Virus genome (UHGV): UHGV-0134521
Source of the DNA: a virus
Length of the DNA stretch: 37,102 nt
Direction: 5' to 3' (one strand)
The notes under the pieces were generated by a model, which saw only the letters and a list, made by a program, of their open reading frames with translations, made no database searches and was not told the origin of the DNA. Each line of letters starts with the position of its first letter. Position 1 is the stretch's first letter. The position numbers were made by a program, and so were the translations under genes. Shown here piece after piece: positions 10 through 34,288 of this stretch.

Positions 10-29
10 TTGTGTACATTTGTACACAA
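10..29. promoter_or_regulatory. 20-bp palindrome TTGTGTACA-TT-TGTACACAA about 20 bp upstream of rcdA start; candidate TetR-type operator
   Basis: Perfect 9-bp inverted arms read directly from sequence; position immediately upstream of a TetR-family gene. Confidence 0.4.
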
Positions 30-49
30 TTGTAGAGAGAGGAAATGAC

Positions 50-586
50 ATGCGTCGCGCTAACGATCCGCAACGGCGAGAAAAAATTATCCAGGCCACG
101 CTGGAGGCGGTGAAACTTTATGGAATACATGCTGTTACACACCGCAAAATTGCTACCCTTGCCGGGGTACCGTTGGGATCGATGACCTACTACTTTTCAG
201 GAATAGATGAGTTGTTGCTGGAGGCGTTCAGCCGTTTTACTGAGATCATGTCCCGGCAATATCAGGCATTTTTTAGCGATGTTAGTGATGCTCCGGGCGC
301 ATGCCAGGCTATCACCGATATGATTTACAGCTCACAGGTTGCAACGCCGGATAACATGGAGCTGATGTACCAGCTCTACGCGCTGGCTAGCCGAAAACCG
401 CTATTAAAAACGGTAATGCAAAACTGGATGCAGCGCAGTCAGCAAACGCTCGAACAATGGTTTGAACCCGGAACCGCCCGCGCGCTTGATGCGTTTATTG
501 AGGGGATGACGCTGCATTTTGTCACCGACCGTAAGCCGCTATCGCGCGAGGAGATTTTGAGGATGGTTGAGAGGGTTGCAGGGTAG
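50..586 (+). CDS. rcdA: TetR-family transcriptional regulator RcdA (YbjK), 178 aa
   Basis: ORF track 20..586 uses a TTG; ATG at 50 gives [14 protein letters not shown]..., matching E. coli RcdA/YbjK as I remember it; N-terminal TetR HTH; GAGG before ATG. Confidence 0.85.
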
Positions 587-690: not shown

Positions 691-1743
691 TTACGGGGTA
701 ATGCCAACCGCTGCCGCCACTTTGTCGCCATTTGGTAACGTTGCCAGTGGATTGAAACGGAGCGCCGTTTCCAAATGATCCGGTGCCAGATGCGCATAAC
801 GCATAGTCATTTTTATATCGTGGTGTCCGAGAATTTTTTGTAAGGCCAAGATGTTTCCACCCGACATCATGAAGTGCGCCGCAAACGTATGGCGCAGAAC
901 GTGTGTCAGTTGACCGCGAGGGAGAACGATAGACGTTTTTTCCATCACGGATAAAAATTGAAAATAGCAGTCTGTGAAGAAATTGAACCCATCGAGCGCC
1001 ATGATCTCTTCATAAAGCTCTTTACTGATAGGGATGCTTCTGTTTTTCTTCCCCTTCGTTCTCACAAAGGTGATTCGGTACTTGGTGACCTGTGAGCGGG
1101 TAAGATTGATTGCTTCTCGCCAACGTGCGCCTGTACTTAGACATATTTTTACCACCAGTGCCAGAATTGGGTTCTGACGTTTGCAGTCAGACAGTAATTC
1201 GATGATCTGCTCATGTGTAAGCCATGCCATTTCCTTTTCTGCGATAGTGAATTTGCGCATCTTCTCTAATGGGTTTGGAAGTGTCCATTCACCCAGGCGG
1301 GAAAGTTCTCTGAAAACGCTGCTTAGATGGCTTTGCTCCAGGTTAACAGTAACTGGGCTTGCTCCTTTCTTCCATTTTTCACTGAAGTAGATTTCACCAG
1401 TAAGGCGTTTATCGCGATAGTGAGCAAACATTTTTGAGGTGAGATCGGTTGCAAGGGGATTTCCCAAGGCGTCAACCATCAACAGCAGCTTGCTGTAGAC
1501 ATGCTGTCCGGCAGTAAGAGATTTGCCATGTAATTTGAACCATAGCTCAACCATATCTTTCAGTGTCCGACGATCCACTGATTCGCCCAGCCAGGGCTTT
1601 GCTTCTATTTCACCCATGGTGTATCGCTCGAAGGCCAGTGCTTCGCCTTTGGTGGCGAATTGTTTACGCACACGACGCCCATTACGTCCGGCGGGGTAAC
1701 ATTCGCAAAGCCATTTCCCTGTGGTGAGTTTTCGTACTGCCAT
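691..1743 (-). CDS. int: Tyrosine recombinase / phage integrase (P2 Int-like), about 350 aa
   Basis: C-terminal catalytic motifs (HVLRHTFA..., GHHDIKMTMRYAHL) and N-terminal similarity to P2 Int; ATG at 1743 preceded by GGAGGG; the track ORF to 1899 is an upstream extension. Confidence 0.9.
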   Translation of the reverse strand: MAVRKLTTGKWLCECYPAGRNGRRVRKQFATKGEALAFERYTMGEIEAKPWLGESVDRRTLKDMVELWFKLHGKSLTAGQHVYSKLLLMVDALGNPLATDLTSKMFAHYRDKRLTGEIYFSEKWKKGASPVTVNLEQSHLSSVFRELSRLGEWTLPNPLEKMRKFTIAEKEMAWLTHEQIIELLSDCKRQNPILALVVKICLSTGARWREAINLTRSQVTKYRITFVRTKGKKNRSIPISKELYEEIMALDGFNFFTDCYFQFLSVMEKTSIVLPRGQLTHVLRHTFAAHFMMSGGNILALQKILGHHDIKMTMRYAHLAPDHLETALRFNPLATLPNGDKVAAAVGITP

Positions 1744-1931
1744 AAAAAATGCCCTCCAGTAGAGAGCATTTTCACTGTATGTATAACCAGTGTCAATGTA
1801 TGAAATCCTACGACCATACATCTCACTGAAGCCATAATTAAGTTGGCTATTCTTTTTGCTATGTGAGCATGTAACTTTTGCGGTTAACCTGCGGCTCATT
1901 TTTATTTTAGACGCAGATATAAAAGCAAAAG

Positions 1932-2123
1932 TTATCGTGAGTTTTTAGTACAGATTTTTTTGGATTTACTAATAGTTCCATCATTGCAAACGAATTTGCC
2001 ATCTGAGGTACAGTGAGAAACACCTCCCTTTTTCCCTGAGCAGGGATAATTTCTAGCATAGGTAGTTAGTGGGTTTAATAACAAAGAACATGACAAAACC
2101 ACAAAAAATACCTTACCAAGCAT
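1932..2123 (-). CDS. Small secreted protein, 63 aa, with N-terminal signal peptide and 4 Cys in the mature part (moron)
   Basis: Hydrophobic N-terminus ending ...TYA; strong SD (GGGAGG) 5 nt before ATG; AT-rich context between cI and int. Confidence 0.5.
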
Positions 2124-2138
2124 AGTTTCCTCCCGGTA

Positions 2139-2708
2139 CTATTTAACATATTTGACTGTTAAACTTATAATTTTACCAATTATTTCAATGTCTTCTATCT
2201 TGCATTCGAAGGCTCTGTTTCCACCCTCGACGAAGATTCTTCCGCCGGGTAAACGAGTAATGTCACGGATCGTTATTTCGCCATCAATACTTATTACCCA
2301 TTTACCATCACGTATATCATCAAATTCTTTATCACAAATAAATTCAGAATTGTTATCTGTGATGACAAAAGGTTTTTTAAACGTAGAGGGTAGAAATCCC
2401 TTATCAAAAATATAAAAACCGTCTTTCTGCAATGCTCCATCAGACAATAAATATTTTTCTACTTCTATAGTATTTGTATTTGCTGATGCTTGCTTTGAAC
2501 CATGCCCTGTTGTTAGCCAATTAAGCGAGGTGCCTGTTTCAAGGGCGCACTGGATTACCCAATCTGCTGGAAAAATATCACGCATATAGCGCGTTGCCAT
2601 GGTGCTCTTAGAAACACCTAAATGATCACAGAGAGCCTGACGGGTACCGAACCCATATGCTTCAACTAAACGTTCTATGGCTTTCTTACCGCCGCTATTG
2701 AAATCCAC
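2139..2708 (-). CDS. cI: Immunity repressor, CI-like (186-type); probable start GTG at 2708, alternative GTG at 2795
   Basis: HTH segment (TRQALCDHLGVSKSTMATRYMRD); no recognisable LexA-type autocleavage motifs; GGAGGA precedes internal GTG; divergent from the apl-like gene. Confidence 0.65.
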   Translation of the reverse strand: MDFNSGGKKAIERLVEAYGFGTRQALCDHLGVSKSTMATRYMRDIFPADWVIQCALETGTSLNWLTTGHGSKQASANTNTIEVEKYLLSDGALQKDGFYIFDKGFLPSTFKKPFVITDNNSEFICDKEFDDIRDGKWVISIDGEITIRDITRLPGGRIFVEGGNRAFECKIEDIEIIGKIISLTVKYVK

Positions 2709-2853
2709 AAGTCCTCCAAAGAAATCCAAAATTCGTTGACAGATTCCAAAAGCGATCTTAAAGTTGAACCAGAAGTGTTCTTTTGGAGCCTTCACTACTA
2801 ATCACGACAAACAACGGCTCGCCACAAGCCATATCTAGAAGGAATGTTGCCTT

Positions 2854-3057
2854 ATGACACCTAACATTTCAATTACTCTGAATACACCACATGTCACAAT
2901 CGAACGTTATAGCGAACTGACTGGCCTTTCTATTGATACGATTAACGACATGTTGGCTGATGGCCGACTACCTCGTCATCGTCTTCGTAAAGACAAAAAA
3001 CGTGAAAAGGTAATGATTAACCTGGCTGCTCTGACTGTTGATGCTTTGTCTGCTTAA
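2854..3057 (+). CDS. Apl/Cox-like small DNA-binding protein (excisionase / lytic-switch regulator), 67 aa
   Basis: First gene of the rightward early operon, divergent from repressor; small basic HTH-like protein; ATG with AAGGAA SD. Confidence 0.6.
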
Positions 3058-3121
3058 TAGACGTCTATTTTCGCAATAAGACGCTGAGTTCGATTTTGCG
3101 ATAAGTTCGGAGTTGAAAACC

Positions 3122-3631
3122 ATGTTTGATTACCAAGTTTCCAAACATCCACATTTTGATGAAGCCTGTCGTGCATTCGCACTGCGCCACAATCTGGTGC
3201 AACTGGCAGAACGTGCGGGCATGAATGTGCAGATTCTGCGGAACAAGCTGAACCCAGCTCAACCTCATTTATTAACCGCACCTGAAATCTGGCTGCTTAC
3301 CGATCTGACAGAAGATTCAACGTTGGTAGATGGTTTTCTGGCACAGATTCATTGTCTGCCATGTGTACCGATTAATGAGGTAGCAAAAGAGAAACTGCCG
3401 CATTACGTCATGAGCGCAACTGCAGAGATCGGGCGTGTTGCAGCAGGTGCGGTATCTGGTGATGTAAAAACTAGTGCCGGTCGTCGTGATGCTATCAGCA
3501 GCATTAACTCTGTAACACGACTGATGGCGCTGGCTGCTGTTTCATTGCAGGCCCGTTTACAGGCTAATCCTGCGATGGCGAGTGCAGTTGATACCGTGAC
3601 TGGCCTCGGCGCTTCATTCGGTTTGCTATGA
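3122..3631 (+). CDS. cII: CII-like lysogeny-establishment regulator (phage 186 CII family), 169 aa
   Basis: [24 protein letters not shown]... closely resembles 186 CII as I remember it; GGAG 9 nt before ATG 3122. Confidence 0.8.
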
Positions 3632-4994: not shown

Positions 4995-5221
4995 TGGCAG
5001 ATGCAATGGATCTCGTACAGCAGCGCGTTGAAGAAGAACGCCAGCGCTATATCCGTGCTGCCCGTGCCAAAACACCGGGCGTGTCTCGTGTGCTTTGTAT
5101 TGAATGTGAAGCGCCAATTCCGCCAGCACGACGCCGCGCCATTCCTGGAGTGCAGCTTTGCATTACCTGTCAGGAAATCGCAGAGCTGAAAGGCAAACAT
5201 TACAACGGAGGTGTTGTATGA
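4994..5221 (+). CDS. TraR/DksA-family C4 zinc-finger protein, 75 aa
   Basis: CIECEAPIP...CITCQ four-Cys motif typical of phage TraR-like proteins; AGGAG SD. Confidence 0.7.
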   Translation: MADAMDLVQQRVEEERQRYIRAARAKTPGVSRVLCIECEAPIPPARRRAIPGVQLCITCQEIAELKGKHYNGGVV

Positions 5222-6075
5222 GCACCATCCTGAAATGGGCGGGAAATAAAACCGCCATTATGTCCGAACTGAAAAAACATCTTCCTGCTGGCCCGCGACT
5301 GGTTGAACCTTTCGCGGGTTCCTGTGCTGTGATGATGGAGACGGATTACCCCAGCTATCTTGTTGCGGATATTAATCCTGATTTAATCAACCTCTATAAA
5401 AAGATTGTCGCTGATTGCGAAGCGTTTATATCTCGTGCCAGAGCTTTATTTGAGGAAGCAAACAGGGATGTGGCTTATTACAACATAAGGCAGGAGTTTA
5501 ATTACTCCACTGAAATTACTGATTTCATGAAAGCGGTATATTTCCTGTATCTCAATCGTCATGGTTACCGTGGGTTATGTCGCTATAACAAGAGCGGGCA
5601 TTTCAACATTCCGTACGGTAATTATAAAAATCCGTATTTCCCTGAAAAAGAAATTCGCGCATTTGCAGAGAAAGCCCAGCGGGCAACGTTTATCTGCGCA
5701 AGCTTTGATGAAACGCTGGCGATGCTGCAGGTGGGGGATGTGGTGTATTGCGATCCGCCGTATGACGGTACGTTTTCCGGCTATCACACTGATGGTTTCA
5801 CTGAAGATGACCAGTATCACCTGGCATCCGTTCTTGAACATCGGTCATCAGAAGGACATCCGGTCATTGTTTCTAACAGTGACACATCCCTGATCCGTTC
5901 GCTGTATCGCAATTTTACTCACCACTACATCAAGGCAAAACGCAGCATCGGTGTGGCAGCTGGTGAGAGTAAATCTGCAACAGAAATCATCGCTGTTTCC
6001 GGGCCGCGCTGCTGGGTGGGATTTGATCCTTCGCGTGGCGTGGATAGTTCAGCCGTGTACGGAGTACGTGCATGA
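5218..6075 (+). CDS. dam: DNA adenine methyltransferase (Dam-like, N6-adenine MTase)
   Basis: N-terminal KWAGNK...EPFAGSCAV (AdoMet binding) and DPPY catalytic motif; ATG 5218 with ACGGAGG SD, overlapping upstream stop. Confidence 0.85.
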
Positions 6076-8578: not shown

Positions 8579-8598
8579 TACTGTAAATATAAACAGTG
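8579..8598. promoter_or_regulatory. LexA box (TACTGTAAATATAAACAGTG; CTGT-N8-ACAG) upstream of the small-ORF + DinI-like operon
   Basis: Matches the LexA consensus CTGT-N8-ACAG within an AT-rich promoter-like region about 40 bp before ATG 8640. Confidence 0.6.
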
Positions 8599-8639
8599 GT
8601 TATACATACAGCATTGCGTGTGGTGTCATAGGAGGAAAG

Positions 8640-8828
8640 ATGCAGGACTATTTTTTGGAGTCTTTGAAGCTCCAGCGCATTGATTTTTTTCTTAAGCTTG
8701 TAGCGGCTAGTGAGTGTAGTGATGAAGAGAAGGGGCTGGCTCTGCAGTGGGTTTCTGAATTGACTGATGAACTCATGGCAAAAATCAGAACCCACGAATA
8801 CAACCGCTCAATGGATGTCATCAGCTGA
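8640..8828 (+). CDS. Small protein, 62 aa, first gene of the LexA-controlled operon (possible Tum-like antirepressor component)
   Basis: ATG at 8640 after GGAGGA; immediately downstream of the LexA box. Confidence 0.5.
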   Translation: MQDYFLESLKLQRIDFFLKLVAASECSDEEKGLALQWVSELTDELMAKIRTHEYNRSMDVIS

Positions 8829-8838
8829 GGTGACTTTT

Positions 8839-9072
8839 ATGCGCATTGAAATAATGATCGATAAAGAGCAGAAGATTAGCCAGTCTACCCTGGACGCCCT
8901 TGAATCCGAGCTTTACCGCAATCTGCGCCCCCTGTATCCCAAAACGGTAATTCGCATTCGCAAAGGTAGCTCTAACGGTGTGGAACTAACCGGACTGCAA
9001 CTGGACGAAGAAAGAAAACAAGTGATGAAAATTATGCAGAAGGTGTGGGAAGACGACAGCTGGCTGCATTAA
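8839..9072 (+). CDS. DinI-family protein, 77 aa
   Basis: MRIEIMIDKEQKI...WEDDSWLH resembles E. coli DinI (MRIEVTIAK...W...DDWF); GAGGTGA SD. Confidence 0.7.
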   Translation: MRIEIMIDKEQKISQSTLDALESELYRNLRPLYPKTVIRIRKGSSNGVELTGLQLDEERKQVMKIMQKVWEDDSWLH

Positions 9073-9207
9073 GAAACGTTGCTGGCGTCTGAACTTGCTT
9101 CTGGCGTCAGCAAGGTTGAACAACGAGCCCTTGCGAGGCGTTAACTCTGTAGTGCATGTCTATGCCGCATGAGATCGCATGATCGTTTGAGGATCGTTTT
9201 TGCTAAG

Positions 9208-9231
9208 GCCCGCCAGAACTGGCGGGCTTTT
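9208..9231 (+). terminator. Rho-independent terminator after the DinI-like operon
   Basis: GCCCGCCA / TGGCGGGC stem with short loop, followed by TTTTG. Confidence 0.55.
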
Positions 9232-9276
9232 GCGTAGATCATGCAGGTGCATGAAAACCACTACATAAAGCGGGCA

Positions 9277-9295
9277 GGCGTGGCGGGGATACGAG
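9277..9295. other. Putative cos site (GGCGTGGCGGGGATACGAG)
   Basis: Resembles the 19-nt P2/186 cohesive-end sequence from memory (first 13 nt match my recollection of 186 cos); placed between the right-end tum-like operon and the left-end portal gene as expected. Confidence 0.45.
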
Positions 9296-9309
9296 CGCGC
9301 GCTGAGTAA

Positions 9310-9343
9310 ATCCATTGCGCCAGCTAATCCAATGGATTACAAT
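9310..9343 (+). promoter_or_regulatory. Candidate sigma70 promoter (-35 TTGCGC 9315..9320, -10 TACAAT 9338..9343) with 7-bp inverted repeat TCCATTG/CAATGGA (9310..9316, 9331..9337)
   Basis: Hexamers with 17-bp spacing read from sequence; inverted repeat brackets the spacer; about 25 bp upstream of cassette gene 1. Confidence 0.35.
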
Positions 9344-9365
9344 GTTATATTTACTGAGGGCATGT

Positions 9366-10022
9366 ATGAAAGAAAAAATGATAAATGAAATGCCATCGGC
9401 CCATATTAAGCAGTTAAGGGCCAAAACTGGTTTAACTCAAGAGGAATTTTGCGAGACTTTCGGTCTTAATCTCAACACCTATCGTCATTGGGAGAGGGGG
9501 GATAGAAAACCAACTGGCTCATCATTAGTTTTGCTAAAACTTATTGAGGAGTCTTTTCACGAAGTGCTATCAATTATGAAAAAAATCAAGGGGGATGGTC
9601 CAATAATGTCAGATGGTAAAACACTTATACTTAAATCACTTGAACAAGATAGATTTTTCACTTTTGAACGTTTTGTAAAAGAAAGTTCTTTTTTTTCTGC
9701 GGATGCCATTTGTGCTCTTATTAAAGCTAATGGTTTTCCTTATGTTTATTTTTCAAATAACCAAGGGGAACTTGTATTTTCAGCAGGTTATGAAATTGAA
9801 GATATGAAAGAAGTGTTCTGGGTCAAGAATGATGATAGAACATATGGTGGATCTCTCAAAACTGTCGTTGAAAAAACTTATAGTTCAATCTATGCGATAG
9901 AAGTTGACCTGCAAGATGCTGTTTATTGGACTCCGGAAATGAGAAACTCAAGAATAGTCGATATTACCGAGAAAACAGGAATTGAACGTGACTTTTTTAA
10001 CAATATTTTAAGGAATTGGTAG
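9366..10022 (+). CDS. Cassette gene 1: XRE-family HTH domain (HigA/MqsA-antitoxin-like) fused to a ~160-aa C-terminal domain of unknown function
   Basis: N-terminal KQLRAKTGLTQEEFCETFGLNLNTYRHWERGDRKPTGSSLVLLKLIEE is a typical XRE HTH; ATG 9366 after GAGGG; AT-rich. Confidence 0.65.
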   Translation: MKEKMINEMPSAHIKQLRAKTGLTQEEFCETFGLNLNTYRHWERGDRKPTGSSLVLLKLIEESFHEVLSIMKKIKGDGPIMSDGKTLILKSLEQDRFFTFERFVKESSFFSADAICALIKANGFPYVYFSNNQGELVFSAGYEIEDMKEVFWVKNDDRTYGGSLKTVVEKTYSSIYAIEVDLQDAVYWTPEMRNSRIVDITEKTGIERDFFNNILRNW

Positions 10023-10023
10023 T

Positions 10024-10695
10024 ATGCGTGGTAAACTAATCAGCTTTGAAGGTATTGATGGTAGTGGGAAAGGAACTCAATCGAAGCTGCTTTTCGAAAA
10101 ACTAAATGCAATAGGGGAAACGGCAAAGCTATTTAGTTTTCCTTGTTACGAGAATACTTTTTTTGGAAAAGAAATAGGTGCATTTTTGAGAGGTGAATTT
10201 GGCGGGATTAATGATGTACATCCTAAACTCGCTTCAATTTTATACGCAATGGATCGTTTTGAGAAAAGGCAAGAAATTGTAAGTTCCTTAGATCAAGGAA
10301 TTGTAGTAATTTGTGACCGTTATGTCGATTCTAATATCGCGCATCAATCGTCTAAACTTGCAGTTTCTCAGCAGAAGGAATTTATTGATTGGGTTAGTGC
10401 ATTAGAATATGAATTTAATAAAATGCCTGTGCCTGATTTAACATTTTTCCTGAATGTTCCTTTGGATATTTCAAAGGAAATGGTACTGAAGAAGAAAAAA
10501 AGAAGCTACACTGACTCCGAAGAAGATATACATGAAAGAGCATATGATTATTTAGAAAGAGTATTGTTAGCATACAATAAAATTGATTTCGGCACGCGCT
10601 GGAACTTAATTGAGTGCTGTAATAATAATAATCTGATGGATCCTGAGTCAATAAGTGATTTAATATTTAAAATTGTCATGAAAGGGCTTAGATAA
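10024..10695 (+). CDS. Cassette gene 2: thymidylate-kinase-fold P-loop NMP kinase-like protein, 223 aa
   Basis: FEGIDGSGKGTQ P-loop-like segment, CDRYVDSNIAHQS (Tmk DRY motif) and PDLTFFLNVPLDIS (Tmk PDLT motif); start 1 nt after gene 1 stop. Confidence 0.7.
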   Translation: MRGKLISFEGIDGSGKGTQSKLLFEKLNAIGETAKLFSFPCYENTFFGKEIGAFLRGEFGGINDVHPKLASILYAMDRFEKRQEIVSSLDQGIVVICDRYVDSNIAHQSSKLAVSQQKEFIDWVSALEYEFNKMPVPDLTFFLNVPLDISKEMVLKKKKRSYTDSEEDIHERAYDYLERVLLAYNKIDFGTRWNLIECCNNNNLMDPESISDLIFKIVMKGLR

Positions 10696-11615
10696 TGCAC
10701 GAGTTGTTGAGAAAAAAACACTCTAGGAATAGTTTCATTACTCTATTTGTTATAGTTGTAACATTAATACTGCTTCTTCGGTATGCTGTACTTCCTTATT
10801 TTTACCCTCCACAATCAACTGATTTTGGGGGCTTTATTGCGACATTATTAAATGGGCTATTTTCATCCTTAACAGTAACCTTCTTGATCGGTTTATTTAT
10901 GTTTTGGATTCAGCCGAAACCTGAAAATTATGCTAAAATAGAAATTGCATATCCTAAAGAATTACCAGAACTTTTCAATGTTGCGTTCCTTAAAACGGAA
11001 ATTTGGTATTATAAAGGTGGATGTGGAAGATATTTTAGAACAGCTACGTTACCAAATATGGCGAAACAGGCTAGATCAAAGTCACAGTCAAAAGAAATTT
11101 TGGTTGTTATCCTTGATCCAACTAATATTGATTTATGTGAAAAACACGCTATTTACAGAAGTGGTACAGCATCACAAGAAATTGAAATTAGGCCTTGGAC
11201 AACAGAGGAAGTTCGCGCTGAGTTGTTTGCAACGATTATTACAACGCTAATTACTCAAGCCAAAGAACCTTCATTAAGAATAAAATTATCATTATGCCCT
11301 CACTATTCATCTTTTAGGATAGATTTATCAGATGATTACGCTATTATTACAAAGGAAGATCGCAATTCTCCGGCCATTATATGTCATAAGGGGACTCATT
11401 TTTATAAATCTTATAAAGATGAAGTAATTTTGTCTCTAAACCAATCACGTAGTGTTCGTATGATAGATCAAGTTGATTTTACTCTAAGAGATATTGATGG
11501 CACGAAAGTTAAATCTTTGTTATCTGATGCTGGTTTAGATGATAACAATCTCACGCCGACTTTCTATGACAAGGTCGCGTCGTTATGTAAAGAGGCGAAA
11601 AATCCATATGCATGA
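10695..11615 (+). CDS. Cassette gene 3: membrane protein with two N-terminal transmembrane helices and a ~230-aa soluble domain, 306 aa
   Basis: Two hydrophobic stretches near the N-terminus (FITLFVIVVTLILLL; LFSSLTVTFLIGLFMFWI); start overlaps gene 2 stop (TAATG). Confidence 0.6.
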   Translation: MHELLRKKHSRNSFITLFVIVVTLILLLRYAVLPYFYPPQSTDFGGFIATLLNGLFSSLTVTFLIGLFMFWIQPKPENYAKIEIAYPKELPELFNVAFLKTEIWYYKGGCGRYFRTATLPNMAKQARSKSQSKEILVVILDPTNIDLCEKHAIYRSGTASQEIEIRPWTTEEVRAELFATIITTLITQAKEPSLRIKLSLCPHYSSFRIDLSDDYAIITKEDRNSPAIICHKGTHFYKSYKDEVILSLNQSRSVRMIDQVDFTLRDIDGTKVKSLLSDAGLDDNNLTPTFYDKVASLCKEAKNPYA

Positions 11616-12246
11616 TTATATGAATGAAATCTATCAAAAAATAACTAATAAAGAATCGTTCGATGTTAAACGTTTCTTTACTTGCTTGGTTGATAATTTT
11701 GATAATTTTGATCCTACTTGGCATGCATTGGGATTTATTCATTGCCGTTTAGCTCAGAATGATCAAGGGACTTTACGCTTACATATTTGGTTCAAAAATG
11801 ATTCACATCCTGCTGAACAGTTAGAAAAAATTCATGATCATAAATTCTCGTTGAATAGCTATGTGTTGTACGGTGCAATATGTAACGAGGTTTTTGAACT
11901 TATAGAAACGTCATCTGGAAAATATGATTACCAGGCCTATGCAGTTAAATATCTTGATAAAGGTTCAGAGTTAATCCCTTTAGCCACTTATTATAATGTT
12001 AGTGATGTATCTTCAAGTATAATAAGGGCTGGTTGTTATTATACGGTTGACTCCAGAGAGTTTCACCGATCATCACTTGTAAATAGTGAGATGGCGATAT
12101 CACTAGTGGCGACTTTTGAGCATAAAAATAAAGACCCTTTGACTTTGGTATCTCATGGGGGGAGTGAGTTTAAAATAAGAGATAAGGTTCCATTTGATAA
12201 GAACAAATGGGTGGAGATATTAAAAGAATACATATCAAAATTATGA
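11608..12246 (+). CDS. Cassette gene 4: hypothetical soluble protein, ~212 aa
   Basis: In-frame ATG at 11608 overlapping gene 3 stop by 8 nt; His-rich segments; no family recognised. Confidence 0.55.
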   Translation: MHDYMNEIYQKITNKESFDVKRFFTCLVDNFDNFDPTWHALGFIHCRLAQNDQGTLRLHIWFKNDSHPAEQLEKIHDHKFSLNSYVLYGAICNEVFELIETSSGKYDYQAYAVKYLDKGSELIPLATYYNVSDVSSSIIRAGCYYTVDSREFHRSSLVNSEMAISLVATFEHKNKDPLTLVSHGGSEFKIRDKVPFDKNKWVEILKEYISKL

Positions 12247-12253
12247 TGTTAGC

Positions 12254-34262: not shown

Positions 34263-34288
34263 TAAATTTCAGGCAACAAAAAACCCAC
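34263..34288. repeat. attR: 26-bp direct repeat (TAAATTTCAGGCAACAAAAAACCCAC)
   Basis: Pairs with 591..616, one mismatch. Confidence 0.65.

Follow-up and report, generated by a model that had tools for sequence, protein, structure and literature searches.

What is a gene of only 63 codons doing between the repressor and the integrase of a P2-like prophage? The question is raised by the UHGV virus genome UHGV-0134521, a stretch of 37,102 nucleotides (nt; hereafter the window) holding a 186/P2-like prophage of about 33.7 kb, in which a small open reading frame (ORF) follows cI, the gene for a 186-type CI repressor, and precedes int, the gene for a tyrosine integrase. A first-pass annotation had taken this ORF for a secreted, cysteine-rich protein and for extra cargo of the prophage. 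It is apparent from the analysis presented here that the ORF is a genuine member of the YdcA family, and that it lies in a slot where related prophages carry other genes; a role for its product in the periplasm of the lysogen is proposed, more tentatively.

The features that the first-pass annotation listed, a 63-amino-acid (aa) ORF with a strong Shine-Dalgarno sequence, a signal peptide and four cysteines in a mature peptide of about 40 aa, in an AT-rich segment, are all present. The GC content over positions 1800-2200 is 0.34, compared with 0.45-0.52 in int and the flanks, with the 3' half of cI being as AT-rich as the ORF segment. Against the NCBIfam model NF007463 the translated ORF scores 115.8 bits, which is above the cut-off of 93 bits, whereas against NF007462, the model of the Escherichia coli K-12 subfamily, it scores 68.5 bits and falls below the cut-off of 118 bits, thus it belongs to the NF007463 subfamily. 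It also matches PHROG 6000 (E-value 2e-34), an entry described as of 'unknown function', near-identical proteins have been assigned to PF27300 (Pfam 'YdcA') in precomputed Pfam, and RefSeq names the same ORF in other E. coli either 'YdcA family protein' or hypothetical protein. A Pfam scan of the ORF itself gave a sole match that was sub-threshold, and it was set aside as spurious.

The pattern of substitution is that of a protein-coding gene. Alleles in E. coli prophages differ in the mature part at 8 synonymous sites and 1 non-synonymous site, a ratio of non-synonymous to synonymous substitution (dN/dS) of ~0.02-0.03, and in comparison with the alleles of Yersinia prophages dS is saturated with dN at 0.06-0.10; for the signal peptide dN is ~1. 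All 80 of the IMG/VR copies examined are intact, with the ribosome-binding site GGGAGGA kept in 78 of them and replaced by GGGAGTA in the other two. The scores against NF007463 and PHROG 6000, the dN/dS and the intact IMG/VR copies together exclude a chance ORF, so that this is a genuine gene with the amino-acid sequence of its mature product under purifying selection. The homology search that had been proposed as a check gave a family match above cut-off, and the dN/dS contradicts a non-coding reading. As the gene is already catalogued, in a family of unknown function, its novelty is modest.

The same data bear on the idea that the segment is a neutral hitch-hiker, or that its role is only in cis, as a spacer or RNA element in the regulation of int. 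As RNA, the 188 nt that follow the ORF are strongly structured (z-score -5.25) and the allele of E. coli NCTC9966 is frameshifted, both of which might be expected under such a reading, yet it is contradicted by the purifying selection on amino acids that the dN/dS records, the peptide is conserved across three proteobacterial classes, and the structured int leader also occurs in sibling prophages that do not have the ORF. Such a role is hardly credible. In the NCTC9966 allele one A has been lost from an A7 run (equivalent to ~1961-1967 of the window), which shifts the frame and removes the fourth cysteine; the allele may be a pseudogene, or the loss may reflect a sequencing error or slippage.

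The N-terminus of the product is organised n-h-c, as in a Sec signal peptide, with K4 ahead of a hydrophobic core of 12 residues (residues 5-16) and T-Y-A preceding the predicted cleavage site after Ala23. The family was aligned as a set of 27 homologues (A2) and as a larger set of 140 sequences (A9). Alanine is found at position -1 in at least 90% of homologues, with the rest of the signal peptide varying freely whilst staying hydrophobic, and the mature part is nearly invariant across the 27 aligned homologues. The four mature cysteines C28, C38, C46 and C58, spaced C-x9-C-x7-C-x11-C, do not vary in A2 and vary little or not at all in A9, and the family motif GKKGG...KFVCNDG is present. The mature peptide of 40 aa (4.3 kDa) has an isoelectric point (pI) of 9.7 and a net charge of +7, the family mean being +5.7, and it is ~70-75% identical between the E. 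coli and Haemophilus phage copies. A fifth cysteine, which is not conserved, lies inside the signal peptide. A lipoprotein reading was rejected, as this residue, Cys12 in 'VVLSC', is too near the N-terminus, Lys4 breaks the pre-region of a lipobox, and roughly half of the aligned homologues, among them the copies in HP2 and in Moraxella and Acinetobacter phages, have no such signal-peptide cysteine. The product is thus very probably a real exported protein, and from its sequence we infer export, cleavage after Ala23 and disulfide formation.

Whether the gene is cargo can be judged from the same position in other phages. In phage 186 cI and int abut and in phage P2 there is no ORF between C and int, therefore the 395 bp that separate repressor and integrase in the window represent an insertion with respect to the reference phages. 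In P2, where the first-pass annotation had C and int adjacent, the two genes are 115 bp apart. Sibling E. coli prophages with the same attachment site and integrase module carry alternative cargo between cI and int. In one this is a KAP P-loop NTPase that is a PADLOC candidate (PDC-S20, E-value 1e-173), in a second it is two unrelated hypothetical genes, and in a third a ydcA-like gene occurs together with the KAP NTPase. Homology to the siblings is lost at the cI stop and at ~60-80 nt upstream of the int ATG (~1803-1821), and because it resumes at that distance from int the cassette can be placed at ~1808-2138. Within it the ydcA-like ATG lies 15 nt past the cI stop and the ORF ends 188 nt before int.

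The position and the variable slot support the ydcA-like gene being cargo, and the earlier claim is borne out, with the slot empty in 186 and P2 and variable in the sibling prophages. As is expected of a moron, the gene is an insertion between genes that are adjacent in the reference phages and is found in some relatives only; a promoter-like site of its own between cI and the ORF and a canonical terminator after the ORF, which are also expected of a moron, were not found. The ORF is carried by 630 of 5426 complete E. coli genomes (~1 in 9), and this type of int occurs in 1135 complete E. coli genomes (at least 80% coverage). A preprint describes the integrase-to-primase interval as a minor defence hotspot that holds ~8% of the defence systems of P2-like prophages, the main hotspots described being the gpA-to-portal interval and the tail region. 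In the decayed prophage of E. coli BL21 the cII gene and a replication gene are truncated, with int, the ydcA-like ORF and cI intact. The BL21 copy is 93.8% identical to that of the window, and the copy in E. coli MS 115-1 is 100% identical.

How the cargo is expressed depends on what lies on either side of it. The stretch between cI and the ORF showed neither a promoter-like nor a terminator-like site, and together with the 15-nt gap and the conserved ribosome-binding site this leads us to infer co-transcription with cI from the lysogenic promoter, so that the cargo is probably expressed along with the repressor. Directly after the stop codon of the ORF there is a hairpin (CUUUUGC...GCAAAAG, -16.6 kcal/mol, z-score -3.4), which is not a canonical terminator as it has no U-tract. 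A further terminator-like hairpin on the + strand (1878-1894) was discarded, as it depends on G-T pairing and is not formed by the coding strand, and an Rfam scan of 1500-3200 found no family.

The leader of int, in contrast to the cassette, is kept in siblings that carry other cargo. It contains a sigma-70-like promoter made up of TTGACA (1791-1796), a 17-nt spacer and GAAAAT (1768-1773; TAAAAT in relatives), and the spacer forms an ACTG-N10-CAGT palindrome (1774-1791) that is LexA-box-like. Such palindromes occur 3 times in the window with 0.48 expected by chance, and at this site the LexA consensus is matched better in sibling E. coli and Yersinia prophages, as by TACTGTTTTTATATACAGTA in Yersinia. 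Next to the promoter-like site is a 13-bp hairpin (1745-1773, -14.9 kcal/mol, z-score -5.3) that buries the ribosome-binding site of int and is followed by a U run and then the int ATG; relatives in Yersinia have a hairpin of different sequence with the same layout. This hairpin looks like a terminator or a translational block. RNA begun at the adjacent promoter-like site would be without the left arm of the hairpin. With such an arrangement, read-through out of cI and the ydcA-like gene may be stopped or silenced before int, and int may have a promoter of its own, possibly under SOS control, a layout which fits cI and the cargo being a separate lysogenic unit. No paper on a LexA-controlled int promoter in P2-like phages came up in a literature search.

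The order cI, ydcA-like gene, int is not limited to E. coli, it is also found in Haemophilus phages HP2 and S2, in Yersinia prophages and in several IMG/VR contigs. In both HP2 (2486-2668 of the record, - strand) and S2 an intact 60-aa ORF of the YdcA family lies between cI and orf1/int, unannotated in the reference records. When one genome was sampled per species, just 6 of the 80 loci had this arrangement. Other homologues are neighbours of Mu Gam and GemA genes, lie amid siphophage tail genes, or are carried by Moraxella and Acinetobacter phages and by Acinetobacter plasmids, one of which is a 3.9-kb MOBQ plasmid, and the family is widespread in chromosomes outside prophages. The peptide is conserved in Gamma-, Beta- and Alphaproteobacteria, where it occurs in many contexts that are unrelated. 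There is no constant neighbouring gene among the homologue loci, therefore the protein appears to act alone. The UniRef label 'conjugal transfer protein' was not used as evidence, there being no tra genes nearby.

The many chromosomal copies raise the possibility that the prophage gene is a fitness factor against envelope or acid stress, giving the lysogen an extra constitutive dose of the chromosomal ydcA function, and with it better survival of acid or organic-acid stress, in a way unrelated to other phages. K-12 YdcA, which is listed as a predicted periplasmic protein with no known function, is 57% identical to the product, and in E. coli W deletion of ydcA results in sensitivity to 300 mM 3-hydroxypropionate, the same paper citing induction at pH 5 under YdcI control. 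The spread of the family in non-prophage chromosomes is in keeping with this. However, the phenotype was reported in a single study, lacks a mechanism and is suppressed by deletion of yieP, and a stress factor leaves unexplained both the repeated capture of the gene by unrelated phages and plasmids and the slot that it shares with a defence candidate. A stress function of this kind is unlikely. Literature searches by protein accessions and family identifiers returned nothing, and no family member has a described function.

As to the architecture of the family, an exhaustive profile search gave 458 clusters at 50% identity, the best 150 of the 458 being 50-226 aa long with one to three modules, and a word-indexed search gave at least 1474 clusters at 90% identity tagged with PF27300. 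A form of ~132 aa is common in Enterobacteriaceae, where it is encoded after tssF-tssG-tssJ-tssE in type VI secretion system (T6SS) clusters, with one variant (P0102) fused to a VasL domain. The module is also the N-terminal part of secreted nucleases that consist of signal peptide, YdcA module, linker and nuclease, the nuclease being either SNase (P0133) or Endonuclease_NS (P0194, P0279, P0313, P0331), which are unrelated folds. One of these fusions is encoded on a phage- or plasmid-like contig. On a Citrobacter plasmid and at ~10 other loci a gene for such a YdcA-domain protein of ~132 aa is immediately downstream of these four tss genes and precedes a GIY-YIG/T5orf172 nuclease gene.

The only relative by sequence in the PDB is chain AN of 7MUC and 7MUD, which is Dis2 of the Legionella pneumophila Dot/Icm apparatus, a type IV secretion system (T4SS) (phmmer E-value 3e-5, profile E-value 4.6e-5). 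Structure prediction leads to the same protein, as Dis2 is the top Foldseek match (probability 0.90, 38% identity over 37 columns) of an AlphaFold model of the product that has a mean predicted local distance difference test score (pLDDT) of 78, rising to 87-90 over residues 31-50. It is thus shown that the module is shared with an envelope-located, disulfide-bonded protein, and the earlier description of the product as secreted and cysteine-rich is upheld by the sequence, by the conservation of the family and by this homology. Matches by phmmer to plant Pin-II protease inhibitors and lectins (E-values 0.2-3.5) were put down to chance cysteine-rich similarity as they are gone in the profile search, and a Foldseek search of the BFVD viral structures gave nothing significant. 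According to the Legionella papers Dis2 (Lpg0823) is disulfide-bonded, is near the outer membrane where it contacts DotK, DotC and DotD, is dispensable for assembly and has been assigned no function; it was called Legionella-specific and without structural relatives. Dis2 is here seen to be a tandem duplication of the YdcA module, itself found across Proteobacteria, and in a limited literature check the link between Dis2 and YdcA may be previously unreported.

The nuclease fusions keep alive a reading in which the module is periplasmic and binds nucleic acid, with the lysine-rich peptide binding DNA on its way through the periplasm in transformation, conjugation or phage entry and hindering foreign DNA uptake. 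In secreted nucleases of two unrelated folds the module is appended at the N-terminus, the mature peptide is strongly basic, as is the family on average, and copies on phages and plasmids are frequent in Haemophilus, Moraxella, Acinetobacter and Neisseria, which are naturally competent genera. Phage DNA, though, is normally shielded as it crosses the periplasm, the fusions are only a few of the listed family members and could equally reflect anchoring of a nuclease to the envelope, and in the solved structure Dis2 is reported to make no contact with the central channel of the T4SS. DNA binding is therefore quite improbable as the function.

A small, cationic, disulfide-rich peptide with a secretion signal, carried on mobile elements that include Acinetobacter plasmids of 3.9-4 kb, might also be a defensin-like antimicrobial peptide or bacteriocin that is released against competitors. 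Against this, a Sec signal alone would deliver it to the periplasm, genes for immunity, processing or export were not found beside it in the window or among the homologue neighbours examined, the homologous module is a structural subunit of the envelope, and the coding is constitutive, next to a repressor, with no coupling to lysis. A bacteriocin is thus very improbable.

The explanation that best covers the evidence overall is a periplasmic protein, expressed in the lysogen, that binds a component of the envelope, and we put it forward tentatively, as something short of probable. With the gene closing the cI transcription unit at its 3' end, the product would be made continuously in the lysogen alongside the repressor, and the hairpin and the separate promoter-like site would uncouple int from the cI-ydcA unit. 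Sec export and cleavage after Ala23 would then allow it to fold in the periplasm as a cationic (+7) mini-domain of 4.3 kDa with two disulfides. In this proposal the YdcA module would be a small domain that docks onto a conserved component on the inner side of the outer membrane. There is a precedent in Dis2, where a tandem pair of modules lies beneath the outer membrane, up against the lipoproteins DotC, DotD and DotK; the T6SS-cluster genes and the VasL fusion are in keeping with docking as well. A lone module made by a prophage may occupy or modify its envelope target. Because the mature peptide is highly conserved between distant hosts, the target is more readily seen as a conserved host component than as a fast-evolving phage protein. 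That the module docks in the envelope is close to an even call.

The most likely benefit would be that the lysogen is protected from invaders that cross the envelope, such as a superinfecting phage. Exclusion or defence as the selected benefit is rather doubtful, however, and no PADLOC model was matched by the ORF; the superinfection exclusion or host interaction suggested in the first-pass annotation is likewise a guess. With the shared slot and the capture by mobile elements as its basis, our guess is either exclusion of incoming phage or DNA, or robustness of the envelope. A wider possibility, which is unlikely, is that the YdcA module is a widespread, unrecognised periplasmic mini-domain for docking or DNA binding, common to Dis2, the T6SS-cluster proteins, the secreted nucleases and the cargo of mobile elements. 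Its stand-alone copy, made from the repressor operon in P2-like prophages of hosts from E. coli to Haemophilus, would then form a new class of periplasmic barrier against incoming phage or DNA.

The gene is of interest because its place in the lysogeny operon is kept across genera and because its module has unexpected relatives. The prophage copy is present in around one in nine complete E. coli genomes, BL21 included, and is probably made continuously with the repressor. If it does block the entry of phage or DNA at the periplasm, it would be a very small exclusion factor that consists of a single gene, and a function would follow for the chromosomal ydcA; the links to Dis2, to T6SS clusters and to secreted nucleases are leads for a family of at least 1474 clusters. 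If it is only a minor stress factor, then it is ordinary prophage cargo.

The remaining features of the locus are given in Table 1. The prophage is integrated between rcdA and ybjL, with the attachment core AGGCAACAAAAAACCCAC at 599-616 and 34271-34288.

Table 1. Coordinates of the cargo gene and of the features around it in the window
Feature	Position	Strand	Remark
rcdA	20-586		host gene, left flank
int, tyrosine integrase	691-1743	-	downstream neighbour of the cargo
int leader	1744-1807	-	belongs to the int module, not to the cargo
Exchangeable cargo cassette, approximate extent	1808-2138	-	from the borders of sibling homology
Structured 3' untranslated region hairpin	1872-1931	-	directly after the ydcA-like stop
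ydcA-like coding sequence	1932-2123	-	63 codons and stop
Mature peptide, 40 aa (predicted)	1935-2054	-	
Signal peptide, codons 1-23 (predicted)	2055-2123	-	
Ribosome-binding site GGGAGGA	2128-2134	-	4 nt before the ATG
186-type CI repressor gene	2139-2708	-	Pfam Phage_CI_repr and Phage_CI_C; presumed to open the lysogenic transcript
Apl/Cox-like gene	2854-3057	+	divergent from cI
CII	3113-3631	+	Fil gene also on +
ybjL and ybjM			host genes, right flank

Other parts of the prophage carry genes that may be of separate interest. In the early region there is a gene for a Dam-type (D12 class) N6-adenine DNA methyltransferase (5158-6075). The interval ~8600-12250 is the known gpA-to-portal cargo hotspot, and holds genes for an HTH_3 protein, for a thymidylate-kinase-like protein that matches PADLOC PDC-M51B (E-value 2e-10) and two ORFs without a family match, a gene set that may be a candidate defence cassette. 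A good LexA box, TACTGTAAATATAAACAGTG (8579-8598), is found upstream of a DinI-like gene (8767-9072), and this pair resembles the SOS-inducible tum region of phage 186.

Among the closest known systems is K-12 YdcA (b1419, 57% identity, E-value 1e-19), which is of like length class and likewise has a signal peptide and the same cysteine pattern; the two differ in subfamily and in setting, the prophage gene lying behind cI and the K-12 gene beside rydC and hokB. With Dis2, an outer-membrane-cap subunit in the Dot/Icm T4SS, the product has in common a signal peptide and the cysteine-rich module GG[VI]xxC...G+xVCNDG, but it is a single module with four mature cysteines whereas Dis2 has two tandem lobes and five disulfides, and no T4SS gene was seen among the window genes examined, Dis2 by contrast being part of a T4SS.

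T4 Sp, T5 Llp and Cor of phi80 and N15 are small, phage-encoded superinfection-exclusion proteins with signal peptides that act at the envelope. The ydcA-like product is similarly small and has a signal peptide, and its gene lies in the lysogeny module in a slot shared with defence-type cargo. It differs from them in that no sequence or profile similarity was found (PHROG, PADLOC, BFVD) and it has no lipobox, and both its conservation and its taxonomic spread far exceed those of typical exclusion proteins. Compared with the accessory hotspots of P2-like prophages, the gene likewise sits in a variable locus, but what it provides is a single tiny exported protein rather than a recognisable defence system.
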